Below are positions 6,602 to 42,893 of a stretch of 64,000 bases of DNA, piece by piece (within the stretch, counting starts at the first letter, position 1; every line of letters starts with the position of its first letter). A program made the translations under genes and the position numbers. Under the pieces are notes generated by a model, which worked only from the letters and a program-made list of their open reading frames with translations, was not told the origin of the DNA and did not search any database. This DNA comes from Anaerolineales bacterium. Lineage in GTDB: Bacteria; Chloroflexota; Anaerolineae; Anaerolineales; RBG-16-64-43. The DNA lies in NCBI GenBank assembly GCA_049511715.1, contig JBEKXU010000007.1, forward strand, positions 8,615 through 72,614. Reading direction: 5' to 3'.

Positions 6602-6682
6602 GATGCCACCTCGGGTTGGCCGAAAGGAGTTCAGGGGAGAGAGGAAAACACTCCCTCCCCTGAAGTACGCCTGTGGGAGATG

Positions 6683-10357: not shown

Positions 10358-10398
10358 AGGCAGGCTGGTTCCCGCTGCCAAGCGACAACACGCCGGAG

Positions 10399-23615: not shown

Positions 23616-23704
23616 TCCCGCTTTGTCGGGCTACGAATAAGGTATACTTGCGTGATTGCATGCCCTCCCGCCCGGTGCGGGAGGGTCGCGTGCTGGCCCC
23701 GGGA

Positions 23705-25519
23705 ATGGACACCTCGCATATCCGAAATTTCTGCATTATTGCTCATGTCGACCACGGCAAGTCCACCCTCGCCGATCGGCTACTCCAACGAACGGGGACG
23801 ATACCGGAACGAGAGATGACGGACCAGGTGCTGGACAGCATGGATCTCGAGCGGGAGCGCGGAGTGACGATTAAGGCTTCCGCCGTCCGCATGAACTACG
23901 GCGCTCGAGACGGCCAGACCTATGAGCTCAATCTGATTGATACCCCTGGCCATGTCGACTTCGCCTACGAAGTCAGCCGGGCCCTGGCGGCCTGTGAGGG
24001 TGCGGTCCTGGTCGTGGACGCTTCTCAAGGGATCGAAGCCCAGACTTTGGCCAACCTGTACTTTGCCCTGGACGCCGACCTGGAGATCATCCCGGTCGTG
24101 AACAAGATTGACCTGCCCTCGGCGCGTACTCAGGAAGTGAGCGAGGAGGTTGCCGCCTTGCTTGGGGTCGCTGAGGATTCGGTGATTCGGATCTCAGCCA
24201 AGCTTGGCCAGAACATCGAAAAGGTTCTGGAACAGGTCGTCGCCCAAGTGCCGCCACCCTCGGGGGCGACCGAGAGCCCCCTGCGGGCGCTGATCTTTGA
24301 CTCGCATTACGACTCGTACAAGGGGGTCGTTGCCTATTTGCGCATCCGTGAGGGTCTTCTCGAGATCGGACAGCCTTGCCAGGCCATGGCCACGGGAGCA
24401 CGGTTTGATCCCATTGAGGTCGGCTACTTTGGCCCGGAAATGCGCCCGAGCGCGGCTCTGGCCGCGGGGGAGGTGGGTTACGTGGCGACGGGCCTCAAAA
24501 CGGTCCGCGAGTGCCGGGTGGGCGACACGCTGACCTCTGTCTCTCGGCCTGCCGGAGAACGGTTGCCCGGCTATCGCCAGCTCAAGCCCATGGTTTTCGC
24601 CGGGATCTACCCTGTGGAGGGGGAAGACTACGCCGCCCTGAAAGATGCTCTGGACAAACTTCAGCTCAATGATGCTTCGCTCGTTTTCGAGCCGGAAACC
24701 TCCCAAGCGCTCAATTATGGGTTTCGTTGCGGATTCCTCGGCCTTTTTCACATGGAGATCATCCAGGAACGGTTGGAGCGCGAATACGGCCTGGAGGTAA
24801 TCGCCACGGCGCCCTCCGTCCAGTATGAGGTCCTGCGGCGGGACGGGGCAATCCAGCATGTTTCTTCCCCCGTGGACTTGCCTGAGGAAGCGGAGATCGA
24901 GGAGATTCGCGAGCCCTGGATGCAAATGCAGATCTTCACGCCTGAGGCCTACTATGGCACCGTAATGGATCTGGCGAACCGGCATCGAGCTGTCTTTCGC
25001 ACTCAGGACTACCCCTCTCCGGGGCGCATTCAAATGACCTTTGAGATTCCCCTGGCCGAGTTGATTGTCGACTTCTACGACCAGCTCAAATCGCGGACGC
25101 GCGGCTACGCCTCTCTCGACTACCATTTCCTCGAATACCGCTCGGAAGAATTGGTTCGCCTGGACGTAATGATCAATGAGGAGGTCGTGGATGCCCTGGC
25201 CTCCATCATTCACCGGGAGGAAGCGTATCAGCGAGGCCAGGCCCTGGTCTCCAAGCTGAAGGAACTGATCCCACGGCAGTTGTACGCCGTTCCGATTCAA
25301 GCGGCCGCGGGGGGAAAAGTGATCTCGCGCGCGAATGTCAAGGCTCTGCGCAAGGATGTCTTGGCAAAATGCTATGGGGGTGACATCACGCGCAAGAAGA
25401 AGTTGCTGGAGAAACAGAAGCGCGGCAAGCGTCGCATGAAGAAGGTGGGGCGGGTGGAAATCCCGCAAGAAGCCTTCATGGCAGTCCTTCGGATTCAAAA
25501 CGAGCAGTCGCAGCAGTGA
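23705..25519 (+). CDS. lepA: translation elongation factor 4 (LepA)
   Basis: [30 protein letters not shown], and a LepA-specific C-terminus ([24 protein letters not shown]). The ATG at 23705 gives a canonical N-terminus. Confidence 0.95.
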
Positions 25520-26625
25520 AAGCTCGGATCATGGAAAAGAGCGGGAAAACGAAGACGACACGAGCGATGGCTTGGCGCAGATCGGCCCTCACGTGGCTGC
25601 CTGGGCTCTTGCTGACCATCCTGGCCGTCGTGATCCTCTGGCGGGTTGTGAGCTGGAAAGAGGTCCTGGGCGCTTGGGCAAGGGCTCGTCCATGGGTGAT
25701 TCTGCCGGGCCTGGTTCTCATGGTACTGGCTCAACTGTCCCGAGCGATGGGCTGGCGGTACCTTGTGGATCGCAAGGTGAGCGTCGCACGATCCTTCTCT
25801 GTCCTTAATGTCGGCTACCTCCTTAACACCCTATTGCCTTTTCGCCTGGGAGACCTGAGCCGGGCCGTTCTGGCAGGACTGCCCGGGCGGGGGGATTCGC
25901 TCCTCTCCGTGAGTTCGGCTCTGTCTGCCGTGGTCGTCGAGCGGGTGGTTGACCTGCTGGTCACGGGGTTGATCGGGTTGGCCGCCGTCGCCTTCTTTGC
26001 CGGCACCTCCTGGGCCGGTCGAGCTCTGGAGGTCACCTTGCTCCTGGCCGTCCTGGGCACCCTGGCTCTTTTCGCACTGGCCATGGCTCGGGCAGGGATC
26101 GTCAGGGTCGTACAGAGAGAGCTGGGTAGAGTGGCGTGGCTGGAACCGTGGGTCGTTCGCCTGGACGAATTCCTGGCAGGGATCCAGGTCATTGGACGGT
26201 GGAGTGTCGCGGTCCCGGCTGTGGCAGGAATCCTGGGGGCGTGGCTGGCGTGGATGCTGGAGTATTGGGTGATCCTGGAGGGGTTTGTTCCTGGCGCGGG
26301 ACTGAATCTGGCCCTGGCAGCTCTGGCGGGGGGCGCGCTAGGAGTCATGATCCCCTCCTCGCCCAACTCTCTCGGGGTGTATGAAGCTGCCGTGGTGGGC
26401 GTCCTCTCCGTCGCGGGGATGTCTCCCGGAGTCGCCCTGGCTTTTGCTCTGTCCATCCATGTCCTGAACACGATTGGGGTATTTGCCCTCGGGATCTGGG
26501 GTTTGCTGCGGGAGGAACAGACCCTTGGACAGCTTGTGACAGCCGTGATGCAAATCCGAGGGCGGAAGCAACCCAGTGAGGGGCCGGATGTTCCTGCGCC
26601 CCCGTATGCGGGGAGCGAAGGCTGA
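25516..26625 (+). CDS. flippase-like membrane protein (lysylphosphatidylglycerol-synthase TM-region family)
   Basis: ~8 predicted TM segments with the family pattern [11 protein letters not shown] ... [23 protein letters not shown] 25516 overlaps the lepA stop; alternative ATGs at 25531 and 25567. Confidence 0.6.
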
Positions 26626-26631
26626 ACTCCG

Positions 26632-27831
26632 ATGCGGATTCTGATTGTCCTGACATACTACCGCCCTCATGTCTCCGGCCTGACGATCTACACCGAGCGC
26701 GTGGCTCGAGCGCTGGCCCGTCGCGGGCATCAGGTCACGGTCCTGACCTCAAGGTTTGACCGCCGCCTTCCCGCTCGGGAAAGCCTCGAGGGGGTCGAAA
26801 TCATTCGGCCCTGGGTGATGGCCAGGGTGAGCAGAGGGGTGCTCATGCCCACCATCGGAAGCTGGGCCTCGCTGCTCGTCCCCTCCCACGATGCGATCAG
26901 CATCCACCTGCCACAGTTCGATGCCCCCGGCATTGCCCTGCGTGGGCGCCTCTTCCGAAAGCCGACGCTCCTCACGTACCATTGTGACCTAAGTCTCCCG
27001 CCCACGGCTTTCAACTACCTTGCCAATCAAGTGGTGCACGCAGCCAATCATCTTGCGGCCGGTGCGGCCCACGGGATCGTTGCCTACACCCGTGACTATG
27101 CCGAGAACTCTCCTTTTCTGGCCCGCTACCTGAACAAGGTAATTGTGATTCCGCCTCCCGTGGAAGTCGCTGAGGTGAGCGAGGAAGAGGTGGAGATCTT
27201 CCGGTCGTGCCATGGTCTGAACCATCACCGGGTCATTGGGATGGCGGCCCGACTGGCGACCGAAAAGGGGGTTGAGTACTTGCTCGAAGCTCTTCCGGGT
27301 GTGCTTGAGAGGTACCCCGACCTGCAAGTCCTTTTTGCCGGGCAGAATCAGAATGTGCTCGGGGAGGAGGCCTACGCACGGAAGTTGCTTCCGGTCATCG
27401 CGCGCCTCGGGAATCATTGGAAGTTCTTGGGAACGCTGGACCCCAGGGCCATGGCAACGTTCTTTCGGGCCTGTGACGTGACGGTACTGCCCAGCATCAA
27501 CAGCACCGAGAGCTTCGGCCTTGTTCAGATTGAGTCGATGATGTGCGGACGTCCGGTTGTGGCCTCGGCTCTGCCCGGGGTGAGACAACCTGTCCGCAAC
27601 ACGGGCATGGGCCGCCTCGTCCCTCCGAGAGACGGACGGGCCCTAGCCGAGGCCCTCTTGGAGATCCTTGACCATCCTGAAGCCTACGACAAGCCCACCC
27701 AGGATCTTCAGGCCGTCTACGCGCCGGATGCGGTGGCCGCCCAGTATGAACAGCAATTCTTGGAACTGGAGCGCCAGCTGGCCGTCCAAGGTTCGCGGCA
27801 CAACTCCGGCCCCTCCAGGGGGCGGAAGTGA
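26632..27831 (+). CDS. glycosyltransferase family 4
   Basis: MRILIVLTYYRPHVSGLT N-terminus and C-terminal GT-B motif PSINSTESFGLVQIESMMCGRPVVAS. Confidence 0.85.
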   Translation: MRILIVLTYYRPHVSGLTIYTERVARALARRGHQVTVLTSRFDRRLPARESLEGVEIIRPWVMARVSRGVLMPTIGSWASLLVPSHDAISIHLPQFDAPGIALRGRLFRKPTLLTYHCDLSLPPTAFNYLANQVVHAANHLAAGAAHGIVAYTRDYAENSPFLARYLNKVIVIPPPVEVAEVSEEEVEIFRSCHGLNHHRVIGMAARLATEKGVEYLLEALPGVLERYPDLQVLFAGQNQNVLGEEAYARKLLPVIARLGNHWKFLGTLDPRAMATFFRACDVTVLPSINSTESFGLVQIESMMCGRPVVASALPGVRQPVRNTGMGRLVPPRDGRALAEALLEILDHPEAYDKPTQDLQAVYAPDAVAAQYEQQFLELERQLAVQGSRHNSGPSRGRK

Positions 27832-28622
27832 CTCCATCCGGGAACGATCGAGTGCTTTGGAACCACCTCCTGGACTTACCCTACTTCCGTGCGCTCCTGC
27901 GAGCCGTGGAGGATGGCTTTTACCAAGGGCTGACCCTGCCGGAGCCGACCCTGGACATAGGCTGCGGAGACGGGCATTTTGCCTCTGTCGCCTTTTCCCG
28001 GCGCATTGATGTGGGATTGGATCCTTCGTTTTTGGTCCTGCCCGAGGCGAAAAGGCGCGGGGGTTATCGCCTGGTAGTGCAAGGGGACGGGATGCGGATT
28101 CCTTTTCCTACCGCTTGGTTTGCCAGTGCGATGAGCAACTCGGTGCTGGAACACATTCCCAGGGTGGACGAGGTAGTCGTGGAGATCGGTCGGGTGCTCA
28201 AGCCCGGAGCTCCCTTTGTGTTCTGCGTTCCGAACCCCCGCTACCTTTCCTATCTTTCCGTGGCGAGGATCCTCGCCGCCGTCGGCCTGCAGCGAGCGGC
28301 TGGCTACTATCGGGATTGGTTCCGGCGAATGTCCCGAACGTACAACCTTGATGAGGCCGAGGGTTGGCGGGCCCGGCTGGATCGAGCCGGGTTGGTTCTG
28401 GAATCTTCCTGGGACTATTTCTCGGAATCCTCCCTGCGTACGCTGGAATGGGGACACTACCTGGGGCTGCCCTGCCTGGTTGCCCGCAAGCTCACCGGGA
28501 GATGGATTCTCTGGAAGTCCAAGATCAACTTGGCGCTGACCTGGCGGCTCGTCTCGCCACATTTTCATGAGGCGACCCCAGCCCAGGGGGCCTACACCTT
28601 CTACGTCGCCAGGCGGGCATGA
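27828..28622 (+). CDS. class I SAM-dependent methyltransferase
   Basis: Motif I LDIGCGDGHF and post-I/II regions (SNSVLEHIP, IGRVLKPGAPFVF). 4-nt overlap with the GT4 stop. Confidence 0.8.
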   Translation: MTPSGNDRVLWNHLLDLPYFRALLRAVEDGFYQGLTLPEPTLDIGCGDGHFASVAFSRRIDVGLDPSFLVLPEAKRRGGYRLVVQGDGMRIPFPTAWFASAMSNSVLEHIPRVDEVVVEIGRVLKPGAPFVFCVPNPRYLSYLSVARILAAVGLQRAAGYYRDWFRRMSRTYNLDEAEGWRARLDRAGLVLESSWDYFSESSLRTLEWGHYLGLPCLVARKLTGRWILWKSKINLALTWRLVSPHFHEATPAQGAYTFYVARRA

Positions 28623-28658
28623 CTCCCTTCGACGAAGGCTATCTTCATACCCGCACAA

Positions 28659-29303
28659 ATGAAAGGCTGCCTGTTGCCCGCCCTCAACCAATACCGGCGG
28701 CCGAATGGCTTCCACGCCGGTCTTGCATGGCCCTACGACCGCCCGCGGCGGCGTCCGTCCGGGGCGGGTTGGGGTCTGGGTCACCTTATTGGGCAGTTGG
28801 AAGGGGACCCTGGGCTTCATCCCGTCGACGTGAATCCATGGACCTAGGGCCGAGCTTGGCAGGTCGCTCCCTGCATGCGGGTCAATGAGGTTTCTGCCGA
28901 GTGTGTCTTCTGCGGAGCGAAAAGCTTTAGTGTCGTCATCATCAAGCACATCGTCGGACACCTGATTCACCCGGATCAGGCCCTTCACGAACTCGGCAGA
29001 GTGCTGGTCCCAGGAGGAACCCTGATTCTCTCTACCCCCAATCTGAGCTCCCTGCTTCGTCCGCTCAACGGCGGCCGGTGGATCGCGTCTCAGGATCCTA
29101 CCTACCTCTCATTGAAGCCGCCGGATGAGTGGCTGGATCCGGTCGATCGGGCCGCCGAGGTCCAAGTGCGAAGAGTTATCAGCGACGGGTTTTGGGATGC
29201 GCCCTATCTTCCATTTGTCGCAGCGGTCATGCAAAAGCTTTTCTTTGGATCGCTGGGTGGCGTCCATGCAAGTGGCGGGTGGGTCCTTCTCCCTCTCCGC
29301 TAG
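28659..29303 (+). pseudogene. decayed class I methyltransferase (in-frame TAG at 28845-28847, degenerate motif I)
   Basis: One frame reads ...RPSGAGWGLGHLIGQLEGDPGLHPVDVNPWT*GRAWQ...SFSVVIIKHIVGHLIHPDQALHELGRVLVPGGTLILSTPN. The Methyltransf_11-like C-half is intact. Motif I is mutated (GAGWG instead of D-x-G-C-G) and interrupted by a stop. An ATG at 28619 that overlaps the upstream stop is in a different frame. Confidence 0.45.
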
Positions 29304-29352
29304 GGGAGAGTATGATTGCAATCGGGCGCAGGCATTTTGGGGCAAACCATCA

Positions 29353-31704
29353 ATGAATGAGCCCACAGCTTCTCTTCTGGACTGGATCCGGGCGGAACTC
29401 AGGCAACCGGCCGTCAAGCGCGCTATTCGCGGGTTCCTGGCTTTGGTTGTCGGGCTGATCGGGCTGAGCTATCTTGCCCTGCGTGGTCCGCTCTCCCCGG
29501 AAGGATACGTGCTGCTCGTGATCGCAGCGGGTCTGGCCGTGTGGGCAGCCCGAGCTCGAGGGCAAGCGGTTCCCGTTCCCCCGATCCCTGTGCCCCCTGA
29601 GCCGGCCCAGCTCTCCTCGGCACCCAAGGTCGTTCGAGGCACCGTCGCCTGGGGTCGGATCCTTCGACCCTGTGCGGCGTTTCTCCTGGCGCTCGTCGCT
29701 CAGGCCGTCATGGATCTCCGCCCCAGCGGGTACCCCGCCAGCACGCGGCTGGCAGGCGTTCTCTACCTTCTACCGATTCTGGTTCTGATTTGGTCCTGGC
29801 GGGCGGGCGATTGGCAGGTCCTTGAGTTGCGTGAGGAAGCCGATCCTGCGGGTTCCTGGGTGCTCTCGTTGCCCTCCGTACTTTGCGCGTGGTTGGGGGC
29901 CGGTCTGAGCCTGGCGGCCTATCTTGCCTTCAAGGGTGACGTTTTCACCCCGACCAACCTGACTCTCTGGATCCTTGCGCTGCTCTTGTGGCTCGTTGCC
30001 CTGTCCCCATCGGAGTCGGGAACTCCCCGTGTGCTGCGCCTGCTCAAAGAGTGGGCCCAGCGGCTTTGGGCGAGGCTGAAGAGCCTGGAGAACGGAGTAC
30101 ACCTTTCCGGGTGGACTCTCCTGGTCTTGTCGGGGTTTCTCCTGGCCGCCTTTTTCCGTCTCTACCGGCTCGATCTGGTGGCCCCCGAGATGACGAGTGA
30201 CCACGCTGAAAAGTTGCTGGATGTCATGGATGTTATCGCAGGCAAATACTCAACCTTCTTCCCGCGCAATACCGGGCGCGAGTTTATTGAATTCTATCTG
30301 GCCGCTTTTGTCGCAACGACCTTTGGCACAGGGATTTCCTTCATCACCCTGAAAATCGTCACGGCGGCAGCCGGGCTGGCCACGCTTCCCTACGTCTACC
30401 TGCTCGGCAAGGAGATTGCGGACCGGAGAGTGGGCCTGGTCGCCATGGTTTTGACCGGCATTGCCTACTGGCCAAATGTGAACAGCCGGATCGGGCTGCG
30501 CTTCCCCTTCCTTCCTCTCTTTGTGGCTCCGGCCCTGTATTACCTGATCCGTGGCTTGCGCCATCGCCGGGCGGAGGATTTCCTCTGGGCGGGGATTGCC
30601 CTGGGCCTTGGGTTTAATGGCTACTCCCCGATTCGCATTCTGCCCTTCGTCATGCTGGCGGCCGTGATCCTCTTCAGCCTCCACCGCCAGGCGAAGGGCT
30701 CGCGAGTCTGGGCCTGGAAAGGTCTGCTGGCCGCCTTCGTCCCGGCGTTCGTCCTGGGCCTGCCGCTCTTGCACTACGCCATGAATAATCCGTTTGTCTT
30801 TTGGGAGCGCACCCTGACGCGAATCGGTCAGAGCGAGGCGACCTACCCCGGCAACCCGATCCTCCTCTTCGTGCAGAACCAGATTAATGCGCTGCTGATG
30901 TTCAATTGGAGCGACGGCACGGCCTGGTTCTTGGGCGTGCCCGGCCGGCCAGCCCTGGATATCGTGAGTGCGGCCCTGTTGGTTCTGGGACTCTTTTTTT
31001 TGTTGGGCAGGTACCTGCGCCACCGGAACTGGTTGGATCTGTTCCTGCTCTTCTCCATTCCGCTGCTGATGCTTCCCTCTTCGCTGGCAATTGCCTTCCC
31101 GATCGAGAATCCGGCGGAGAACCGCACCTCCGGAGTCTACCCGATCGTTTTCGTGGTGGTCGCCATCGGAGCGGTCATGCTCCTGGACACCCTGAAGGGC
31201 CGCCTGTCGCAATGGAGTTATCGCTTTCTCGTCCTGCCTTGTGCCGGCCTGCTGTTCATGGGTGCGATGGTGCAGAACTACCAGATCACCTTTGAACAGT
31301 ATCCGACTCAGTATCGGCTGGCGGCTCAGAACGCCTCGGAGATTGGCGCACTGGTGGAGGCTTTTGCCCGTTCGGTGGGTGACTACCAGGACGCGTATGT
31401 TATCCCTTACCCCTATTGGGTGGACACGCGCTTGGTAGGAATGTACGGGGGAGATCCTAGCCGGGACTTCGCGCTTCCCCCGGCGTCTCTGCAAACGCTG
31501 AACCCGGAAGGGCAGCCGCTGCTCATTGTGTTCAACCGGAATGATCGCGACACCTTGAAGGTTGTCTCTTCGCGGTTCCCTTCCGGACGACTGCAGCGGT
31601 TCGCCTCCAAGGTTCCGGACCACGATTTCTTCTATTACTTCGTTCCCGGGAGCCCAACCCAGTCAGCTGGGCAATCCGCAGGATCCGCCTCGTCAAGCCC
31701 ATAG
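29353..31704 (+). CDS. GT-C-fold polytopic glycosyltransferase-like protein (ArnT/PMT_2-like)
   Basis: More than 12 hydrophobic segments. PMT_2-like core FFRLYRLDLVAPEMTSDHAEK ... LPYVYLLGKEIADRRVGLVAMVLTGIAYWPNV ... LGFNGYSPIRILPF, plus a C-terminal soluble domain. ATG 29353 was chosen because the 29125 start overlaps the upstream pseudogene. Confidence 0.65.
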   Translation: MNEPTASLLDWIRAELRQPAVKRAIRGFLALVVGLIGLSYLALRGPLSPEGYVLLVIAAGLAVWAARARGQAVPVPPIPVPPEPAQLSSAPKVVRGTVAWGRILRPCAAFLLALVAQAVMDLRPSGYPASTRLAGVLYLLPILVLIWSWRAGDWQVLELREEADPAGSWVLSLPSVLCAWLGAGLSLAAYLAFKGDVFTPTNLTLWILALLLWLVALSPSESGTPRVLRLLKEWAQRLWARLKSLENGVHLSGWTLLVLSGFLLAAFFRLYRLDLVAPEMTSDHAEKLLDVMDVIAGKYSTFFPRNTGREFIEFYLAAFVATTFGTGISFITLKIVTAAAGLATLPYVYLLGKEIADRRVGLVAMVLTGIAYWPNVNSRIGLRFPFLPLFVAPALYYLIRGLRHRRAEDFLWAGIALGLGFNGYSPIRILPFVMLAAVILFSLHRQAKGSRVWAWKGLLAAFVPAFVLGLPLLHYAMNNPFVFWERTLTRIGQSEATYPGNPILLFVQNQINALLMFNWSDGTAWFLGVPGRPALDIVSAALLVLGLFFLLGRYLRHRNWLDLFLLFSIPLLMLPSSLAIAFPIENPAENRTSGVYPIVFVVVAIGAVMLLDTLKGRLSQWSYRFLVLPCAGLLFMGAMVQNYQITFEQYPTQYRLAAQNASEIGALVEAFARSVGDYQDAYVIPYPYWVDTRLVGMYGGDPSRDFALPPASLQTLNPEGQPLLIVFNRNDRDTLKVVSSRFPSGRLQRFASKVPDHDFFYYFVPGSPTQSAGQSAGSASSSP

Positions 31705-31746
31705 CGCCTCGACCTCAGCAATCCAAAACAGGCAGGTGTCGACAAC

Positions 31747-34700: not shown

Positions 34701-36717
34701 CGCCGTCATTAAGAGCACTTCCTTTCCCCCCTATGATCCCTGGTTTGCCGGGGGCCTCATCAATTATTACTACTTCGGGTTTGTCATCCTGGCTATCCCG
34801 ACCAAACTCCTGGCCATCCTCCCTTCGTTCGCTTACAACCTGAGCCTCCCATCGCTTTTCGCGATGCTGGGCCTGGCGGGCTTTGGTATTGGCTGGAGCT
34901 TGGCGACTCGGTTGCGGGAGGACGGCCATGTCCCTGTCTCTCCGCTTCTGGCGGGGGCGGCGGCAACCGTCGGCCTGATCCTCATCGGAAACCTCGGTGA
35001 AGTCCGGATGGTCTGGGAGGGCTGGATCGGGGCCAGCGGGCTCAAGATTCAGAATGGCCTGATGTTCGGCCTGGGCAGCGTCCTCAATGCTGCGTCGGGC
35101 ACCTGGCGGGTGTTCACCCAGCAGGCCACTTTCCCCTATGGCACTGGGGACTGGTATTGGATTCCCTCCCGTGCCATCCCTGTTCCCAATGGTCCAGGAG
35201 GGGTCCCCACGGAGGCCCAGCCCATTACCGAGTTCCCCTTCTTCACGTTTCTTTACGGCGACCCTCACGCCCACATGATCGCGATGCCCCTGACGGTGCT
35301 GGCCGTGGGTTTCGCGGTCTCGTTGGTTCTTCGGCCGCAACAGACGCGGCGATGGTCCGAGATTGTGCCGGCCTTGATTCTGGGATCCCTGGTGATCGGT
35401 GCCCTCCGCCCCACCAACACTTGGGACTTCCCGACCTATCTGGGGCTTGGGGTTGTGGCGGTTGGGTATGCCAATTGGAAAGCGGCTCCACCGGGCCACC
35501 CCACAGGGAGAGCTTGGGCCGCCGTGACTCTGGGAGTGGCGGAGATCGCCGCCCTGGTCGGCTTGTCCTTCCTCCTCTATCAGCCCTACTCCCAATGGTA
35601 CCTTCAGGGCTACACCTCGTTCCAATTCTGGACGGGCTCAAAGACACCCCTCGATTCGTACCTGATCATCCACGGGGTCTTTCTCTTCGTCCTGGTGAGC
35701 TTCCTGGTTCTCCTGACCAGGGACTGGCTGGCCAGCACCCCGCTGGCGGCTGTTGGGCGCTGGAGAAGGAATGGCCTGCTCGGATATGCGCTGGTGGGCT
35801 TTGTGGTCCTTCTGTTCGCGATCGTGCTCCTCTGGATGTTGCAGTATCAGGCCGTGGCCTTCGCCCTGCCGCTCATCGTCTGGGCGGGGTTGTTGGCGCT
35901 TCAGAAGAACCTTTCGGAGGCCAAGCGCCTTATTTTGGGGATGATGGTCGTGGCTCTGGCACTCACCGTGGTGGTGGAATTCGTGGTTCTGTCGGGCGAC
36001 ATCAGCCGCATGAATACGGTCTTCAAGTTCTATATCCAGGTCTGGATTCTGTTTGCGTTGGCGGCCGGGCCGGCCCTGGCATGGCTGCTGGCTTCGCGTG
36101 GTCAGTGGAGCCCTCGACTGGGCTCGCTTTGGACCGTCGCCGTGACCCTGCTGGTGTTGGGAGCCGCCTTCTACACCTATCAGGCCGGTCTCTCCAAGGT
36201 GGAGGACCGCATGGCCCCCAATGCGCCGCGCACCCTGGACGGGATGACCTATATGGCTTATGCCCAGTACGCGGATCAGGGGCAGACCATGGACTTGAAC
36301 GAAGACTTCCAGGCCATTGAGTGGATGCAGGAGAATATCATCGGATCCCCGGTCATCGTCGAGGCCAATACGGTCGAATACCACTGGGGATCCCGCTTCA
36401 CGATCTACACGGGCCTGCCCGGGGTGGTGGGGTGGGACTGGCATCAGCGTCAGCAGCGAGGGGTGGTCTCGCCGGTGGAAGTGGACGCGCGAGTGCAAGA
36501 AGTAAAGGAGTTCTATACCACTACCGACCAGGGCTGGGCGCGCCAATTCCTGAGCCGGTATCAGGTCAGCTATATTGTGGTCGGAGAGTTGGAACGCGCC
36601 TACTATCCGTCCGCCGGGCTGGAGAAATTCTCTCAGATGCAGGCCAAGGGATGGCTGCAGAAGGTCTATTCGGCCGGACACACTGTCATTTACAAGGTGG
36701 TTGGCTCGCCGAACTAG
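31747..36717 (+). CDS. 1656-aa fusion membrane protein: N-terminal GT-C/PMT_2-like module, ~360-aa non-membrane central region, C-terminal YYY (DUF2298, chlor_Arch_YYY) domain
   Basis: Uninterrupted 4971-nt ORF. N-module carries NPDEYG and LFLFLIGLRLYGRRVGLLASALGALAVLEIQYSHF. C-module carries GEKPMDFSYFNAVIKSTSFPPYDPWFAGGLINYYYFGF, EFPFFTFLYGDPHAH and RMNTVFKFY, and is colinear with the next gene. Confidence 0.7.
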   Translation: MSEHELEVKRQAEVGPQSPIPPQEAAGFRRERGSGWRRFAGFLFDLILLALIGIGVAWRLSWVNWSEGTDLNPDEYGLTENLTDLSIPQSLSDYFNTRLSSISPYQKYDVNGNATTPGANNGFVYGQLPITIIRWVAEKTGNTGYDDIRLLGRRLSSFCDILTLLFLFLIGLRLYGRRVGLLASALGALAVLEIQYSHFMTVDNFALFFSVVAMFAAVQVSKDRESDSRRLSSWGWYALFGVAFGMTMASRVNLFPLAAELVVAAGISYYRQLKNSAAESPRILAAVAGKLVVAGLISFLVFRVTQPMSFRALRGDTTLSTLNLNPDWVASMKVALEQSNGIGGGPPGEQWTNRPIIVFPLVNMILWGLGLPLGLMASGGFFLALWRSWKGAWETHLLPLTWAGGYFLFMGTRFVKSIRYFLPVYPFMALLAAWALLEIWNRVRALRQSGKPRRALSWAGPAAGVGLFVVVLGGTFLYAWGFTGIYRHENTRIQASRWIFQNVPATFTVEIQTSTGLYNEPVPVPYGTQVGANPALLLPFEAHVDGQAIRVEVAHARGASGSDGSGQLQVVLSSNAAGSQPLAEAALQVPAVGSDPRGQSSSAPLKPAAVTANQVYYLLVAASQGAPISVSGAAVASESWDEGLPLRIDGRDPFGGLYQGLTMEVRWPDDENKRQMFIQNLAASDYIFLSSQRGLWSPTRLPRSYPLTVAYYQDLFAGRLGFTLVAQFQQPIRIGPLVLSDLAGTVGWNQTPTLPVYNSNLFAAEEAFSVYDHAPVWIFKKSPNFDLSKVKAVLDSVDLQYVVPADPRNPIPAMNALMLPPDRLAEQRAGGTWASMFSRLSAQNSVEVLGVVLWFLWVLLTGWAAFPLVTLALKGLPDLGYSLARVAGWLLIAWLAWLLGSYEVPFVRITLLALWAGLIAVGVAMFLIGRREWKEKLRQHWRTWGTMELVFLALFLFDLLLRYGNSDLWHPSFGGEKPMDFSYFNAVIKSTSFPPYDPWFAGGLINYYYFGFVILAIPTKLLAILPSFAYNLSLPSLFAMLGLAGFGIGWSLATRLREDGHVPVSPLLAGAAATVGLILIGNLGEVRMVWEGWIGASGLKIQNGLMFGLGSVLNAASGTWRVFTQQATFPYGTGDWYWIPSRAIPVPNGPGGVPTEAQPITEFPFFTFLYGDPHAHMIAMPLTVLAVGFAVSLVLRPQQTRRWSEIVPALILGSLVIGALRPTNTWDFPTYLGLGVVAVGYANWKAAPPGHPTGRAWAAVTLGVAEIAALVGLSFLLYQPYSQWYLQGYTSFQFWTGSKTPLDSYLIIHGVFLFVLVSFLVLLTRDWLASTPLAAVGRWRRNGLLGYALVGFVVLLFAIVLLWMLQYQAVAFALPLIVWAGLLALQKNLSEAKRLILGMMVVALALTVVVEFVVLSGDISRMNTVFKFYIQVWILFALAAGPALAWLLASRGQWSPRLGSLWTVAVTLLVLGAAFYTYQAGLSKVEDRMAPNAPRTLDGMTYMAYAQYADQGQTMDLNEDFQAIEWMQENIIGSPVIVEANTVEYHWGSRFTIYTGLPGVVGWDWHQRQQRGVVSPVEVDARVQEVKEFYTTTDQGWARQFLSRYQVSYIVVGELERAYYPSAGLEKFSQMQAKGWLQKVYSAGHTVIYKVVGSPN

Positions 36718-36774
36718 CCTGATGGGGTCTGCTCCGGCCTCCCTCGGTTCCCCGGCTTATCTTCCGCGGCCTGA

Positions 36775-39339
36775 ATGAGCACCAATCTGCTCGCGTTCTG
36801 GAAATGGTGGGCGGCCCTTCTGCTTTTGGGCGCGGCCGCCTGGCCTCTGATTTTCTACCTCTTCCGGAGGTTGCCGGATCGGGGCCTGACCCTGGCTCGT
36901 CCCTTTGGCCTTTTGCTCGTGGGCTACCTGTTCTGGCTGGGAGCCTCCTTCGGGTTTTGGACCAACACGGCAGGTTCCGCCGCAGCGGCCGCGATCGCCG
37001 TGTTCGCGGTCGGCACGACCGCGTGCCTCCACGCTAGGGTGAGCCCTTGGGCTTGGCTGGGCCGTAAGAGGCGGATGGCCCTCGCCCAGGAGGCCGTGTT
37101 CCTCCTTGCGTTCACCGCCTGGGCCTGGGTGCGGGCGAACAATCCTGCTGCCGTCGACACCGAAAAGCCGATGGAGTTGGCGTTCATCAACTCGATCTTG
37201 CGATCGGTGACCTTTCCTCCCCGGGACCCGTGGCTTTCAGGCTACGCAATTTCCTACTACTACTTTGGCTATGTCCTGGTGGCCATGCTGGCCAAGATGG
37301 CCGCTGTGAGTGGGGCGTATGCCTTCAACCTGGGAGTCTCTTCCTGGTATGGGATGGCGGGACTGGCGGCCTATGGATTATTGAGCAATCTGCTGGCCCT
37401 GCGCGAGCGCGGGCGGGGTGCCCAGGAACGCTTTCGCTGGGCGGGTCTCCTGGCCCCTCTGACCCTGCTAGGCGTTGGGAACTTCGAGGGCATTCTCGAG
37501 GTTCTCTACAATCTCCACATTGGGTGGAGCGGCCAAAGCGGGCCGTTTTGGCAATGGCTCGATATTCTTGACCTTTCCTCACCCCCGACAAGCCCGGCGA
37601 CTCTGGATCCAACTCACTATCGCTTCTGGTGGTGGTGGCGCGCCTCGCGGGTCATCCAGGATCGGGACTTGCTGGGACGGAGTTTCAGCCTCCAGCCCAT
37701 CGATGAGTTCCCCTCCTTTTCGTTCATGTTGGGCGATCTTCACCCACACGTTCTGGCCCTCCCCATGGGGCTGGCCGTCCTGGGGTTGGGGCTGGAGCTC
37801 TTGCTTCGGATTTGGCGTTTGCCGGGCGCGCCGCGAAGGAGGCCCAGCCTAGGCGCCTTGTTTCCTCTTCCGTTGGCCGGGTTTGCCTCGCTGGTCCTTG
37901 GCGGGCTCGCCTTTCTCAACACGTGGGATTTTCCGGTCTACCTGCTCATCTGCGCCGGCGCAACCTGGCTTGCATGGCGAAAATGGGGGAGGCCGGGTCT
38001 CGGGCCTCTGGCCGGACGGTGGGGAGAGATTCTCGCGCTCGGGGTTCTCCTGTACCTGCCCTTCTATCTCAGCTTCTCATCCCAGGCGGCCGGCGTTCTG
38101 CCCAACCTCATCTTTGTCACAAAAGGTCAACAGTTCGCCGTGATGTTTGGGCCACTCCTGATTCCCGTGGCACTATGGCTTGGCTCTCTGGCCCTCTCGC
38201 GGAGGGGGCAGTTGGCCTGGGGGCGCGGTTTCCTGTTGGCGGCCGGGCTCGCCTTCGGTCTCTTTTCCTTCTCGCTCTTGCTGGGAGCGCTGGCGGTGCA
38301 AGACCCGTATGCGGCCCCCTTCGTCAGCAAACTCATCCAGCCGATGAGTGTCCGCCAGGCCGTGCTGGCGCTTCTCCAGCGGCGGTTGGTCATGCCGGGG
38401 TCTCTGATCGCTCTCGTGGCCCTCCTGACGCTGGTCTTCGCCGCGTTGCTGCCGAAAGGTCGGAAGCGCGATGCCTGCGCAGGAGGCGGCACGGAGTCTT
38501 CTCCCAAGAAGGGAAACCTGTGCCTTGCGCCGCAAGGGTTTTCCCCCGCGGAGATATTCCTGCTGTTGCTGGTTGCGGTGGGGGCGGCCCTGGTGCTCGT
38601 GCCCGAGTTTGTCTACCTGCGAGACCAATTCGGGGCGCGCATGAACACCGTCTTCAAGTTTTACTTCCAGGCCTGGGCGTATTGGAGTCTCGCTGCGGCC
38701 TATGGCCTGGTGGTCCTTTGGGGTTGGCGGCAGAGTCGATCGCAGGCCCCTTCCCACCCGGCGCGGGAAGGTGGGACGCCCTTCTGGATCCGGCTGAGCT
38801 GTGGCCTTGCTGTCGCTGGGTTGCTCCTGGGGTTCCTCTACACGCCCCTTTCGGTTTGGACGAAGACCTCTGGTTTTGGCCTCGGATCTTCGGCGACCCT
38901 GGACGCCTCCGCCCACTTGGAGTTGGACGATCCTGCCGACGCGCAGGCCATCGCTTGGATCAATTCCAATCTGAAGGGCGGCCCAATGGCCGAGGCGGTG
39001 GGGGGGGATTACACGAACTTCGCGCGAATCTCAACCTACACGGGCCTTCCGACGGTACTGGGTTGGCCTGGCCACGAAGGGCAGTGGAGGGGTGGGTATA
39101 ATGAGATCGGCTCCCGCCAGGACGACATGGCCCAACTCTACCGCACCCAGGATTGGACGATGGCGCTCAACATCATTGAGCGATACCAAATCCAGTATGT
39201 TTACTATGGCCCCCTGGAGATCCAGGCGTACGGAAGCTCCGGCCTGGCGAAATTCCAGGCCCACCTGCGCGTCGCGTATCACAGCGAGCAGGTGACTATC
39301 TTCGAGGTCGAGCCGAACGCATCCTCCGGAGGCTCTTAG
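36775..39339 (+). CDS. YYY-domain (DUF2298 / chlor_Arch_YYY) integral membrane protein
   Basis: TEKPMELAFINSILRSVTFPPRDPWLSGYAISYYYFGYV, EFPSFSFMLGDLHPH, NTWDFPVYL, RMNTVFKFYFQAW, YTGLPTVLGWPGHEGQWRG. Confidence 0.75.
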   Translation: MSTNLLAFWKWWAALLLLGAAAWPLIFYLFRRLPDRGLTLARPFGLLLVGYLFWLGASFGFWTNTAGSAAAAAIAVFAVGTTACLHARVSPWAWLGRKRRMALAQEAVFLLAFTAWAWVRANNPAAVDTEKPMELAFINSILRSVTFPPRDPWLSGYAISYYYFGYVLVAMLAKMAAVSGAYAFNLGVSSWYGMAGLAAYGLLSNLLALRERGRGAQERFRWAGLLAPLTLLGVGNFEGILEVLYNLHIGWSGQSGPFWQWLDILDLSSPPTSPATLDPTHYRFWWWWRASRVIQDRDLLGRSFSLQPIDEFPSFSFMLGDLHPHVLALPMGLAVLGLGLELLLRIWRLPGAPRRRPSLGALFPLPLAGFASLVLGGLAFLNTWDFPVYLLICAGATWLAWRKWGRPGLGPLAGRWGEILALGVLLYLPFYLSFSSQAAGVLPNLIFVTKGQQFAVMFGPLLIPVALWLGSLALSRRGQLAWGRGFLLAAGLAFGLFSFSLLLGALAVQDPYAAPFVSKLIQPMSVRQAVLALLQRRLVMPGSLIALVALLTLVFAALLPKGRKRDACAGGGTESSPKKGNLCLAPQGFSPAEIFLLLLVAVGAALVLVPEFVYLRDQFGARMNTVFKFYFQAWAYWSLAAAYGLVVLWGWRQSRSQAPSHPAREGGTPFWIRLSCGLAVAGLLLGFLYTPLSVWTKTSGFGLGSSATLDASAHLELDDPADAQAIAWINSNLKGGPMAEAVGGDYTNFARISTYTGLPTVLGWPGHEGQWRGGYNEIGSRQDDMAQLYRTQDWTMALNIIERYQIQYVYYGPLEIQAYGSSGLAKFQAHLRVAYHSEQVTIFEVEPNASSGGS

Positions 39340-39342
39340 CTT

Positions 39343-41157
39343 ATGAAGGCTGTTGGCCAGCCCGGGTCTGTCGCTCCACCGCCGCCCCAGGCGTCGGCGC
39401 TCGATTCTTTCTTCCGAGAGCACGAGATGGCCTTGTATGCGGGGGCGGTGGCCATTGCCCTGGCTCTGCGGTTTGCTGGTCTGTCCGCGTTCCCGCTAAG
39501 TGACACAGAGGCCGCCCAGGCCTGGGCGGCTCTTCATCTCGCGCGGGGCCAGATCGTAGCCGACCTGGGGGCCACCAATCCTCTGTACACCGTCCTCACG
39601 GCCGCCCTGTTTTTCGTCGGGGGACCAGGCGACTTTCTGGCCCGACTGTGGCCTGCTGTCGCGGGCACGGCTGTGGTCCTTCTGCCCCTTGGCATGAGGC
39701 GGGCCTTTAACCGGTCGGAGGCGATTCTGGCCTCCTTCCTGCTTGCCCTTTCCCCGGGGATCACCGCGATCTCCCACCTGGCGGGGGGCGCCACCCTTGC
39801 GCTCTTGCCGATGGGAATCCTCATTCTGCTTGCCGCGGAGGAAGGACTGGCCCAGAGCCCCGGGCTGGCCGGTGTTTGTGCAGGCGCAGCGTTGGCCACC
39901 GGGAGCGATGGCCTCACCGGGCTGCTTCTGCTCGGGTTGGGGATTGGAATTGCCAGCCTCTGGGCAAGGAAGGCAAGCAGGGCCGTGCCGATCGAGGGGA
40001 CCATCCGGGACGATGTTTCCCGCTTGCTGGCGTCCTCTCGCTTTTGGATCGCCGCTGCCTTGTCATTCGCAATTGGGGTGACCGGACTCCTTTTTCCAGC
40101 CGGCTTGGGAGTGTTCGCCTCGGGGTTGCAAAGATGGGCCTCCGAGCTGGTTCAGCCCGCAGGATACTCCGTGGGGCAGATGGTGCTGCTCCTGCTGGGT
40201 TACGAAGGCCTGGCCTTTCTGGGCTGTCTCACGGCTATGGGCTTGCTCCGCAGCGAGCGGATGAGCGGGGGCCTGTTTTTCCTTCTGGCTTTCTTGGGCT
40301 TGGCAGTGCTCTGGTGCCTCCTTCGCCCAGGGCGGTCTCCGGAGGATGCGATCTGGGTCCTCTTCCCCATGGTGATCTTGGCCAGCAGGGGGATCTATCG
40401 AACGCTATGCACCTTTGCCGCTTCTCACAGCCGCTGGGCGAGTCGGTGCCAGGTCCTGGCGAGTCTGGCGCTGGGAGTTTTTGCCTGGCAGAGCTTTGCC
40501 GGGCACGCGGTCCTGGGCGGACAAGTGCCGGACAGTTCCGCTGCCATCCGGATTGGCGTCGGGGTTGTCGCGATTGTGGCGATGGTTGTGCTGGCCGGTC
40601 TCTTTGCCACGAGCTGGAGCGAAAATGTGAGCGTGGCGGCCGCCGGGCTGGGCCTGGCGGTCGGGATTCTTCTCTTGGTGGGCCAGATCTCAGCCGCGGC
40701 CAATCTCGCAGGGACCCGGCGCGGAGAGGCCAACGAAGTGTGGTGGCCCTCTGCCACGACGAATCAACTGGGATTCCTGGTGAGCAATTTGCAGCAAATC
40801 TCAGAATGGCAGACCGGAACCCCTGAGGATCTGCCGATCGTGGTCTCGGGCGATCCCGACAGCGCGGTGGGCTGGGCGCTCAGATCGTTCCCCAACACCT
40901 CCTATGCCATTCCCAATGCAGGCGCCGACCCGGCGGTATACCTTTCCATTGAGGTCGCAGGAAAGAATCAGCCCCTGCCGCCATTCTCGGCAGCGTACAT
41001 GGGCGAGCCCTTCACCCTGCAGACGTATCGGGCCTGGAGCGACTTCCCCCCGGACCTGCTGGCTTGGTGGATTTATCGAATGGCTCCGACTCGGACTGAG
41101 CGGGTCATCCTGTGGGCGCGGCAGGACGTGCTGAACCCAGGCCCTGGAAAAGGCTAG
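39343..41157 (+). CDS. polytopic membrane protein, GT-C-like N-terminus (function unknown)
   Basis: ~12 hydrophobic segments. First-loop pattern LRFAGLSAFPLSDTEAAQAWAAL resembles the R-x-L-x-PL-x-DE-A motif of ArnT/PMT_2 enzymes. ~130-aa C-terminal soluble domain. Starts 3 nt after the previous stop. Confidence 0.5.
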   Translation: MKAVGQPGSVAPPPPQASALDSFFREHEMALYAGAVAIALALRFAGLSAFPLSDTEAAQAWAALHLARGQIVADLGATNPLYTVLTAALFFVGGPGDFLARLWPAVAGTAVVLLPLGMRRAFNRSEAILASFLLALSPGITAISHLAGGATLALLPMGILILLAAEEGLAQSPGLAGVCAGAALATGSDGLTGLLLLGLGIGIASLWARKASRAVPIEGTIRDDVSRLLASSRFWIAAALSFAIGVTGLLFPAGLGVFASGLQRWASELVQPAGYSVGQMVLLLLGYEGLAFLGCLTAMGLLRSERMSGGLFFLLAFLGLAVLWCLLRPGRSPEDAIWVLFPMVILASRGIYRTLCTFAASHSRWASRCQVLASLALGVFAWQSFAGHAVLGGQVPDSSAAIRIGVGVVAIVAMVVLAGLFATSWSENVSVAAAGLGLAVGILLLVGQISAAANLAGTRRGEANEVWWPSATTNQLGFLVSNLQQISEWQTGTPEDLPIVVSGDPDSAVGWALRSFPNTSYAIPNAGADPAVYLSIEVAGKNQPLPPFSAAYMGEPFTLQTYRAWSDFPPDLLAWWIYRMAPTRTERVILWARQDVLNPGPGKG

Positions 41158-41175: not shown

Positions 41176-41907
41176 ATGGCAAGGCTGGGTGGAGACTCCG
41201 GAATCATCGCGATCGATGGGACGGCCGCTTCCGGCAAGACCACCCTCGCCCGATGCCTGGCCGAGCATCTGGGGTATCTTTACTTTGATACCGGGGTGAT
41301 GTACCGCGCGCTCACTCTGGCCGCAATACGCAAAGGATTGTCCACGGCGGACGAGGCGGGCCTGAGTGAGCTGGCCGAGCGGATCACCATCGACGTCCGT
41401 CCTCCCAGTGTGAAGGATGGAAGACCTTGCACCGTTCTGTTGGACGGGGAAGACGTGACCTGGCTGATCCGGTCGGAGCAGGTGGATCAGCTGGTTTCCC
41501 CCGTGTCCGTCTTCGCGGAGGTCCGCCGGGCGCTTTCGGCTCAGCAAAGGCGCATCGGTCTGCGCGGGCGCGTGGTGATGGTCGGGCGGGACATTGGAAC
41601 AGTGGTCCTTCCCGAAGCGGATCTGAAGATCTTCCTGGACGCCTCTCTGGAGGAACGGGCCAGGCGCCGGCATTTGGAGCTGGAGGCGAGGGGCTTCGCT
41701 CCCTCTCTGGAGGAGGTGCGCCGCTCGCTCGGGGAGCGGGACCGCATTGACTCGGAACGCTCGGTGGCTCCTCTGCGGGCCGCCGCCGACGCCGTGCGTA
41801 TTGACTCGACTAGACTTAGCGTTCAAGAGGTCTACGAGCAGGTGGAGGCCATGATCCCGAAAGGAATGGCGGAACCAGGCCAGCCAGGGAAGAACACGGC
41901 GGGCTGA
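41176..41907 (+). CDS. cmk: cytidylate kinase
   Basis: P-loop IAIDGTAASGKTT, FDTGVMYRA. SD GGGAGG upstream. Confidence 0.9.
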   Translation: MARLGGDSGIIAIDGTAASGKTTLARCLAEHLGYLYFDTGVMYRALTLAAIRKGLSTADEAGLSELAERITIDVRPPSVKDGRPCTVLLDGEDVTWLIRSEQVDQLVSPVSVFAEVRRALSAQQRRIGLRGRVVMVGRDIGTVVLPEADLKIFLDASLEERARRRHLELEARGFAPSLEEVRRSLGERDRIDSERSVAPLRAAADAVRIDSTRLSVQEVYEQVEAMIPKGMAEPGQPGKNTAG

Positions 41908-41979
41908 GCGCCATCAGAGTAGGCACACGGCTTTCCGCCGCACAAGAGGTAAGACCCACAGTTGAGAGGAGTCCTCACC

Positions 41980-42720: not shown

Positions 42721-42893
42721 GCCCAAGTCCATTCCAGTGGGGTCGATGACCGTCCATACCCGCTTGCAGGGGCCGTCGGAAGCTTCACGAACTCGCCTCC
42801 TCGGCGCTCGGCCGATTGCTCGCGGGTCGCTTTCCACGTGGAAGGACCTGCCGGACCACCCTGCGAGGGGCCTCCGCCGTGCCTGATCCGGTC

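Follow-up and report, generated by a model that had tools for sequence, protein, structure and literature searches.

Within a 64-kb stretch of DNA from an Anaerolineales bacterium (contig JBEKXU010000007.1; GC content ~62%), hereafter the window, eight consecutive genes between lepA and cmk, named P1 to P8 in order, form a cluster that we consider, with a probability of roughly 60%, to assemble a cell-envelope glycoconjugate. The cluster encodes a predicted flippase-like membrane protein, a glycosyltransferase of family 4 (GT4), a methyltransferase together with the remains of a second one, and four large membrane proteins. All four large proteins are similar to the glycosyltransferases of fold C (GT-C) and belong to two lineages, one PMT_2/Agl23-like and the other formed by the YYY (DUF2298) proteins, as indicated by Pfam for P5 and the N-terminal half of P6, by a family profile for P8, and by the predicted folds of P7 and P8. 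The cluster is most likely a vertically inherited, operon-like unit of the class Anaerolineae. Its genes and their flanks are as follows, where L-numbers, here and below, denote the loci of relatives and SAM stands for S-adenosylmethionine.

23648-25519, + strand: lepA (elongation factor 4), the upstream boundary gene, with Pfam domains GTP_EFTU and LepA_C.
25516-26625, + strand: P1, predicted MprF-type flippase-like membrane protein of 369 aa with an LPG_synthase_TM / UPF0104 / PplT domain.
26632-27831, + strand: P2, predicted cytoplasmic GT4 glycosyltransferase (GT-B fold) of 399 aa with a Glycos_transf_1 domain.
27828-28622, + strand: P3, predicted class I SAM-dependent methyltransferase of 264 aa with a Methyltransf_11 domain.
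28619-29356, + strand: P4, a second class I methyltransferase in the form of a pseudogene, recognized by comparison with the ortholog in L005.
29353-31704, + strand: P5, PMT_2-type GT-C membrane protein of 783 aa (PF13231).
31747-34266, + strand: N-terminal half of P6 (about residues 1-840), a PMT_2-type GT-C module followed by a soluble domain (PF13231).
34288-36717, + strand: C-terminal half of P6 (residues 848-1651), a DUF2298 / Chlor_Arch_YYY module (PF10060, TIGR03662).
36775-39339, + strand: P7, stand-alone DUF2298 / Chlor_Arch_YYY protein of 854 aa (TIGR03662).
39343-41157, + strand: P8, GT-C-fold protein of 604 aa, member of a branch in Chloroflexota that is related to TIGR03663 (Agl23).
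41176-41907, + strand: cmk (Pfam Cytidylate_kin), 18 nt 3' of P8.
41962-42720, + strand: PlsC-type acyltransferase gene (Pfam Acyltransferase), a conserved neighbour 3' of cmk.

The listing of open reading frames (ORFs) contains seven intact + strand genes between lepA and cmk. The compact single-strand series described in the first-pass annotation of this DNA is borne out, with spacings of +6 nt between P1 and P2, -4 nt between P2 and P3 (the start of P3 and the stop of P2 overlap by 4 nt), +42 nt between P5 and P6, +57 nt between P6 and P7, and +3 nt between P7 and P8. As had also been described, the first gene overlaps the lepA stop codon, namely by a GTG at 25516 that is the first candidate start of P1; an alternative start, the ATG at 25531, was picked by one gene caller. 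In the P5 region, the longest ORF opens at 29125, and the start chosen here, at 29353, is backed by L005, where the corresponding start overlaps the P4 ortholog in an ATGA. The whole of P6 (31747-36717) is a PMT_2-YYY fusion of 1656 aa, and P5 to P8 together amount to 3897 aa (783 + 1656 + 854 + 604), in agreement with the earlier estimate of about 3900. Promoter and terminator scans gave nothing above shuffled controls and no terminator-like site between the cluster genes, and cmk and plsC may be co-transcribed with the cluster. Over the large membrane-protein genes (window positions 28001-40000), the AT skew of the + strand ranges from -0.18 to -0.26, which likely reflects T-rich codons for hydrophobic residues rather than a replication signal.

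Searches of Pfam and NCBIfam returned all of the domain hits that had been predicted for the cluster, namely LPG_synthase_TM, Glycos_transf_1, Methyltransf_11, DUF2298, and GT-C. P1 matches PF03706 with E=1.8e-37 (129.9 bits against a cut-off of 33.4) and TIGR00374 ('flippase-like') with 45.7 bits (cut-off 43.2), which makes it a predicted member of the LPG_synthase_TM / UPF0104 / PplT flippase-like domain family. P2 is matched in Pfam by Glycos_transf_1 (4e-30) as well as by Glyco_trans_4_4 and Glyco_transf_4, and P3 is matched by Methyltransf_11 (4.2e-14). The presence of P1 and P2 side by side raises the alternative that the region consists of two units, in which these two proteins, with or without a methyltransferase, would glycosylate and flip a phospholipid headgroup in the manner of gpgSDF, and the GT-C genes would serve an unrelated pathway. 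The synthesis of glucosaminyl-phosphatidylglycerol in Pseudomonas indeed follows a logic for which a GT4 and a UPF0104 flippase suffice (PMC12713373), GT-B domains fused to PplT domains are found in Chloroflexi (bioRxiv 10.1101/2022.03.11.483950), and P2 weakly matches NF053787, the model of the N-acetylglucosaminyl-phosphatidylglycerol (GlcNAc-PG) synthase, with E=4.8e-10. However, this match reaches 38.8 bits where the cut-off is 480, no deacetylase domain is present among the cluster proteins according to Pfam, and P1 to P8 are contiguous on one strand with minimal gaps even in species at ~40% identity. We therefore find a division into two units unlikely and prefer the reading in which P1 to P8 contribute to one envelope glycoconjugate.

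The second methyltransferase gene, P4, is a pseudogene in this genome, as judged from the closest relative, L005 (P7 78% identical), in which the ortholog is intact and 245 aa long. Alignment to this reference places the ancestral start of P4 at the ATG at 28619, which overlaps the stop of P3. In the window, the reading frame of P4 shifts by +1 near 28682 and by -1 near 29300, the latter shift leading to a stop at 29301-29303; between the two lies an in-frame TAG (28845-28847), and SAM-binding motif I has changed from LEVGCGLG to SGAGWGLG. P4 is called a pseudogene because of these two frameshifts, the TAG, and the degraded SAM motif; the joined sequence retains a residual Methyltransf_11 match (2e-5). 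The ORF at 28659, which had been taken for an open gene, is interrupted by the same TAG and is part of this pseudogene, so that of the methyltransferases proposed for the locus, P3 stands as an intact one and P4 does not. Readthrough or recoding of the TAG was considered and rejected in view of the two further frameshifts and the degraded SAM motif. Two independent metagenome assemblies, from JGI (3300038418 Ga0427942_000304) and Logan (SRR13201824), are identical to the window across 22.5 kb, including the P4 lesions. Intact P4 orthologs are present in L005, L038, L039, L045, L046, L047, L064, L066, L080, and L084.

Among the large proteins, P5 and the N-terminal half of P6 are recognized by PF13231 (PMT_2). 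P5 matches with E=2.2e-11 (44.6 bits against a gathering cut-off of 26.1), and P6 matches at residues 157-277 with 28.1 bits against the same cut-off. P5 contains a conserved loop motif made up of E279, S282-D-H-A-E-K287, and D290, in which D283 and E286 are at least 90% conserved. Similarly, the N-terminal half of P6 contains a PMT-style loop motif, P73-D74-E75, in which D74-E75 are conserved at 90% or more. P8 has no Pfam match and falls below the threshold of TIGR03663, which NCBI names 'flippase activity-associated protein Agl23' (3.9e-9, 36.1 bits, curated cut-off 126.25). In the P8 family, which comprises 2430 cluster representatives at E<=1e-30 in an exhaustive profile search, 51/51 sampled members match TIGR03663 (best 5.8e-52) and 28/51 match PMT_2. 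By these profile scores, P8 is related to TIGR03663 but divergent, short of certified membership, and Agl23 relatives, known from an archaeal flippase-associated protein, are shown to be abundant in bacteria.

The three PMT_2/Agl23-like families are also connected to each other, with hhalign probabilities of 78-97%, including 96.9% between P5 and the N-terminal half of P6 and 88% between the latter and the P8 family. The AlphaFold2 model of P8 has a mean predicted local distance difference test (pLDDT) value of 77, and its best Foldseek match is ArnT (1e-7; TM-scores 0.50 and 0.54), followed at ranks 2-26 by STT3, AglB, ALG9, Pmt4, EmbA/B/C, AftA/B, and PimE with probabilities of 0.99-1.00. 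The P8 family profile matches the ArnT sequence with E=0.0017. With each of the four large proteins as query, phmmer found nothing useful in the PDB, where none of them has a relative at the sequence level. P8 retains E56 as the sole remaining acidic residue of the loop motif. Overall, the acidic loop motifs of P5, the N-terminal half of P6, P8, and the YYY proteins would fit GT-C catalysis.

The C-terminal half of P6 and the whole of P7 score well above the cut-offs of both models of the DUF2298 / TIGR03662 family and are accordingly assigned to it as predicted members. For PF10060 (cut-off 27.8), the scores are 391.7 bits (7e-117) for P6 and 341.2 bits for P7, and for TIGR03662 (cut-off 300.25), they are 552.5 bits (1.8e-165) and 474.4 bits (7.8e-142), respectively. 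The YYYxG motif, which reads S160-Y-Y-Y-F-G165 in P7 and INYYYFG in P6, is (near-)invariant in 60 sequences. The invariant motifs of P7 are EKPME, DPW, SYYYFG, IDEFP, GDLHPH, NTWDFP, NT(I/V)FKFY, and GHExQWRG, and the conserved acidic and histidine residues of the family, in P7 numbering, are E130, D151, D310-E311, D321xH323xH325, and D385. The invariant E130 and D151 are located past transmembrane (TM) helix 4, in a loop that contains two short helices and that the positive-inside rule would orient outward.

An AlphaFold2 model of P7 was built on the 60-sequence alignment (pLDDT 87.9; predicted TM-score 0.92), and in it ~13-15 TM helices are combined with a globular domain of ~150 aa at the C-terminus. 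Searching this model against the PDB with Foldseek gave five matches at E<=0.001, namely three Archaeoglobus AglB entries, DPY19, and human STT3A, each with a probability of 1.00. The E-values were 2.8e-6 for AglB, 6.6e-5 for DPY19, and 2.1e-4 for STT3A, and a fourth AglB entry followed at 3.1e-3. The C-terminal domain by itself matches the C-terminal domain of AglB-S2, and non-GT-C hits, including transporters, stay at noise level (E>=0.1). The predicted models thus link YYY to GT-C by fold alone, with the oligosaccharyltransferase (OST)/DPY19 branch as the nearest. The first-pass annotation had placed the large proteins in the GT-C superfamily and had named a placement as transporters as the outcome that would speak against it; the Pfam, profile, and Foldseek results agree with the former, and a role of the large proteins as transporters was rejected on the fold searches of P7 and P8.

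A broader doubt is whether the YYY proteins are glycosyltransferases at all, since transporters, polymerases/ligases, or scaffolds could share a GT-C-like helical architecture. The absence of sequence-level likeness to any GT-C family and the low global TM-scores agree with this, and the GT-C-fold relative Agl23 has a reported flippase activity (PMC11182771), so the fold is not confined to transfer. However, every PDB match of P7 at the above threshold is a GT-C protein, the transporters are at noise, and invariant clusters of Asp, Glu, and His are typical of metal-dependent GT-C active sites, which together leave a nontransferase role for YYY rather improbable. We continue to treat these proteins as GT-C-like enzymes. 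The literature on DUF2298, TIGR03662, TIGR03663, and the 'YYY domain' proved incidental or unrelated (for example, the Y_Y_Y propeller domains of regulators), with no paper on DUF2298 function. The present analysis places this family, which has thousands of metagenome members and essentially no literature, in a fold and in a functional setting for the first time. Tentatively, YYY might be an unrecognised OST/DPY19-like GT-C lineage that builds the non-lipid outer layer or layers of Chloroflexota together with Agl23- and PMT_2-like partners, as a bacterial counterpart of an archaeal lipid-phosphate-sugar pathway that Chloroflexota and Archaea would share.

The fold neighbours of YYY also bear on the nature of the acceptor. 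AglB, STT3, and DPY19 modify peptides, and P7 has a C-terminal globular domain like that of AglB, which is what would be expected if the GT-C proteins were protein O- or N-glycosyltransferases acting on S-layer, pilin, or archaellin-type proteins, with P1 and P8 supplying flipped donors. The PMT-type DE loop motif in the N-terminal half of P6 points in the same direction, and surface filaments of Chloroflexota have been reported to be O-glycosylated (PMC12488501). However, YYY has neither the sequon-binding WWDYG motif nor an STT3 Pfam match, the cluster encodes no candidate acceptor protein, and four consecutive distinct GT-C enzymes suit the building of a polymer, such as lipomannan (LM)/lipoarabinomannan (LAM) or arabinogalactan, better than single-site modification. 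P7 is not called an OST because it lacks this motif and this match, and, on its sequence, YYY should not be filed as an OST. Protein glycosylation is thus a possible but doubtful account, and the assembly of an envelope glycoconjugate remains our preferred reading of the cluster.

The conservation of the cluster was determined by one scan of the GTDB species representatives with the P7 alignment as query, which gave 80 loci, nearly all Chloroflexota by title and mostly Anaerolineae, with one labelled Nitrosomonadaceae. All stop-to-stop ORFs of these loci were compared with the window proteins, and the denominators given here are the loci with enough flank. A P8-like gene lies directly 3' of the P7 ortholog in 60/69 loci, a P6-like gene lies directly 5' of it in 54/64, and the PMT_2-YYY fusion is found in 42 of 48. 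Likewise, the P5 ortholog is present in 39/48 loci, the upstream GT4 in 35/44, a P3-type methyltransferase in 24/44, and a P4-type one in 8/44, and cmk lies 3' of the P8 ortholog in 52/66. P1 (at least 19/44) and lepA (at least 8/44) are both present wherever the 10-kb flank extends far enough, with lepA 5' of the P1 ortholog in L011, L021, L029, L065, and L077, for example. The recurrent order is lepA, flippase-like protein, (short-chain dehydrogenase/reductase [SDR] epimerase), GT4, methyltransferase, (methyltransferase), PMT_2, PMT_2-YYY, YYY, Agl23-like protein, cmk, and plsC, where parentheses mark genes found in some loci. The synteny is kept at 36-45% protein identity, and the order has therefore been retained over deep divergence within the class. 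The gene-order conservation that had been anticipated for relatives is found in most of the 80 loci.

Such conservation might in principle have no functional meaning if these genes belonged to a lepA ... cmk-plsC backbone and acted independently. The housekeeping flanks are likewise conserved in position, and the promoter and terminator scan gives no signal either way. However, every gene of the block carries a domain of the envelope-glycosylation type, the stops and starts of neighbouring genes overlap or nearly abut, which suggests that their translation is coupled, and the PMT_2-YYY fusion, present in 42/48 loci, is direct evidence that both types work together. Mere adjacency is therefore a very improbable explanation, and a jointly acting envelope-glycosylation cluster is the one we retain.

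The relatives also show how the cluster varies. In many of them, a gene for a nicotinamide adenine dinucleotide-dependent epimerase/dehydratase (PF01370, GDP_Man_Dehyd-like, 341 aa) lies between P1 and the GT4, for example at 1599-2624 in L024 and at 1411-2436 in L065, and P1-GT4 gaps of about 1 kb are seen in L020, L025, L033, L036, and L037. This gene is absent from the window and from L005. The P6 ortholog is broken into two or three ORFs in L047 (5687-10771), L061 (4034-8980), and L063 (3990-9009), which represents either assembly frameshifts or real gene decay, and in L077 its position is held by an 875-aa YYY-only protein with no PMT_2 half. Solitary P7-like paralogs occur in L013, L016, L022, L043, L058, and L073. 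In L043, a Brevefilum metagenome-assembled genome, the solitary YYY gene (9971-12418) is two genes from a divergent gene of the LytR-CpsA-Psr family of wall-polymer ligases (6433-7521); this proximity may hint at a wall-polymer link or may be coincidence.

Outside Chloroflexota, a DUF2298 gene is found on plasmid pNP95 of the Firmicute Pseudobutyrivibrio xylanivorans (L089, 622-12870), within a surface-polysaccharide cluster that also encodes a DegT aminotransferase, a glucosyltransferase-domain protein, a glycosyltransferase of family 2 (GT2), an O-antigen ligase family protein, and a nucleoside diphosphate-sugar epimerase/dehydratase; this independent occurrence speaks for a role of the family in envelope glycans. 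A Halarchaeum plasmid encodes a DUF2298 homolog, which confirms the presence of the family in Archaea; no glycosylation genes neighbour this YYY gene, the one archaeal example obtained, which spans the origin of the record. Two TIGR03663/PMT-like proteins from outside Chloroflexota (P0282 and P0285) have no YYY neighbour.

In the pathway that we propose, the GT4 (P2) would transfer a sugar from a nucleotide sugar to a membrane lipid at the inner face of the membrane. In relatives, the SDR epimerase/dehydratase would tailor the sugar, and a methyltransferase may methylate it. P1 would then move the glycolipid to the outer leaflet, where the GT-C proteins, with their catalytic loops facing outward, would elongate it or hand sugars on to an acceptor in the envelope. 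On the outer face, the substrates of GT-C enzymes are lipid-phosphate sugars, and the donors in this case would be such lipid-phosphate-linked sugars, made by an enzyme whose gene is located elsewhere in the genome. Like archaeal Agl23, P8 may help to flip the lipid-phosphate-sugar donor, instead of or in addition to transferring sugar. The end product could be a lipoglycan, a wall polysaccharide, or a glycoprotein, among which the sequence does not discriminate.

Several results weigh against this pathway, of which the donor is the weak point. No GT2 or polyprenyl-phosphate-sugar synthase was found among the Pfam-annotated called genes, which cover roughly positions 5-64 kb of the window, and no GT4 enzyme is known to make polyprenyl-phosphate sugar donors. 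The GT-C donor is therefore hypothetical, because the window has no gene to make it. P2 itself is under the cut-off of every NCBIfam equivalog. As for YYY, the global TM-scores of P7 to GT-C structures are low (0.27-0.35), its hhalign probability against the profiles of the P5, P6 N-terminal, and P8 families is ~2%, and a search of the YYY profile against PDB sequences found nothing. Moreover, lepA, cmk, and plsC are housekeeping genes, and the conserved order could partly reflect the chromosomal backbone. The module, which had been described as a self-contained pathway, is not self-contained because the window lacks a lipid-phosphate-sugar synthase; in addition, no sugar-nucleotide enzyme was found in the surveyed window, and the SDR gene of the relatives is missing. 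Elsewhere in the window, two genes overlap, one (60446-61240) for an AA_kinase of the isopentenyl-phosphate-kinase type and the other (61225-62205) for a GHMP kinase resembling mevalonate diphosphate decarboxylase. The pair resembles the alternative ('archaeal-type') mevalonate pathway that has been reported for Chloroflexota and that would supply polyprenyl carriers.

Two further genes lie outside the cluster. The one at 42816-44285, on the same strand and directly 3' of cmk-plsC, encodes a radical SAM protein that contains PDZ and DUF512 domains. The other, at 14893-16251 on the - strand, encodes a 452-aa N6_N4_Mtase DNA methyltransferase, and the genes called next to it include no evident restriction partner.

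Chloroflexota cells have no lipopolysaccharide and no BAM genes, yet they have extra envelope layers of unresolved composition (PMC13319060, PMC7332563), for which the cluster provides a sensible starting point for experiments. As a core envelope-glycosylation gene set of Anaerolineae, it offers a concrete genetic handle on envelope biogenesis in Chloroflexota.

Among known systems, a similar general logic is that of the three-component glycosylation systems GtrA/GtrB/GtrC, CsbB/GtcA/YfhO, and ArnC/ArnEF/ArnT, in which a lipid-linked sugar is made inside the cell, flipped, and transferred outside by a GT-C enzyme. The cluster would follow the same make-flip-transfer sequence, and ArnT is the best structural match of P8. 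However, it has neither an adjacent GT2 polyprenyl-phosphate glycosyltransferase nor a small flippase of the GtrA/GtcA type; their places are taken by an MprF-type flippase domain and a GT4, and the number of GT-C proteins is four instead of one. In the actinobacterial assembly of phosphatidylinositol mannosides (PIM), LM, LAM, and arabinogalactan, the GT4 enzymes PimA and PimB act inside, and the GT-C enzymes PimE, MptA/B, Emb, and Aft act outside. Similarly, the cluster pairs a cytoplasmic GT4 that would prime a lipid with a GT-C series that would extend it outside, and PimE, AftA, AftB, and EmbA/B match the fold of P8. The relation is one of fold and does not extend to orthology, the genes of the actinobacterial pathway are scattered and form no single operon, and YYY is absent there. 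AglB, STT3, PglB, and DPY19 resemble P7 in fold, with ~13 TM helices and an AglB-S2-like C-terminal extracytoplasmic domain, whereas P7 has no WWDYG motif, STT3 hit, or profile similarity and carries its own invariant motifs.

In Archaea, the flipping of lipid-linked glycans has been predicted for PF03706, the flippase domain of MprF, where it occurs next to PMT/STT3-like proteins (PMC5898192). As described by Makarova, Galperin and Koonin (2015, PMC5898192), the archaeal neighbourhood contains UPF0104/PF03706 (arCOG00899), the PMT/STT3-like arCOG00563 (for example, MJ_1079 and HVO_2052), and a glycosyltransferase similar to AglD. Both arrangements place a PF03706 protein beside a cytoplasmic glycosyltransferase and a GT-C membrane protein, with surface glycosylation as the predicted function. 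However, the archaeal enzyme is a GT2 (GT-A fold) that is often fused to the flippase domain, whereas the cluster has a separate GT4 (GT-B fold), along with four GT-C proteins that include YYY, methyltransferases, and a bacterial host. Agl23 suppresses a yeast rft1 deletion and flips lipid-linked oligosaccharide in vitro, according to PMC11182771, which also cites work on Haloarcula hispanica Agl22/Agl23 (Lu et al. 2020) in which Agl23 handles hexose-phosphate-dolichol. Flippase-associated activity on lipid-linked sugars has been shown for the Haloarcula Agl23 only (PMC11182771). The P8 family is related to TIGR03663 in all sampled members, whereas P8 itself scores 36 against 126 bits and keeps one acidic loop residue, and no Agl22-like GT2 synthase is encoded nearby. 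Finally, gpgSDF of Pseudomonas aeruginosa combines a GT4-type enzyme acting on a membrane lipid with a UPF0104 flippase-like protein (PMC12713373). The cluster contains the same pairing, whereas it has no deacetylase, P2 is no equivalog, and the GT-C battery has no counterpart there.

The locus is thus less without precedent than the first-pass annotation had suggested, as related arrangements are described in PMC5898192, PMC12713373, and bioRxiv 10.1101/2022.03.11.483950. The cluster is neither mechanistically surprising nor categorically new; its scheme varies known ones, namely three-component glycosylation, the PIM/LM/LAM logic, and the archaeal UPF0104 neighbourhood. What is new is its deeply conserved arrangement in Anaerolineae, the pairing and fusion of PMT_2 with YYY, and the fold-level placement of the abundant DUF2298 family beside OST/DPY19.

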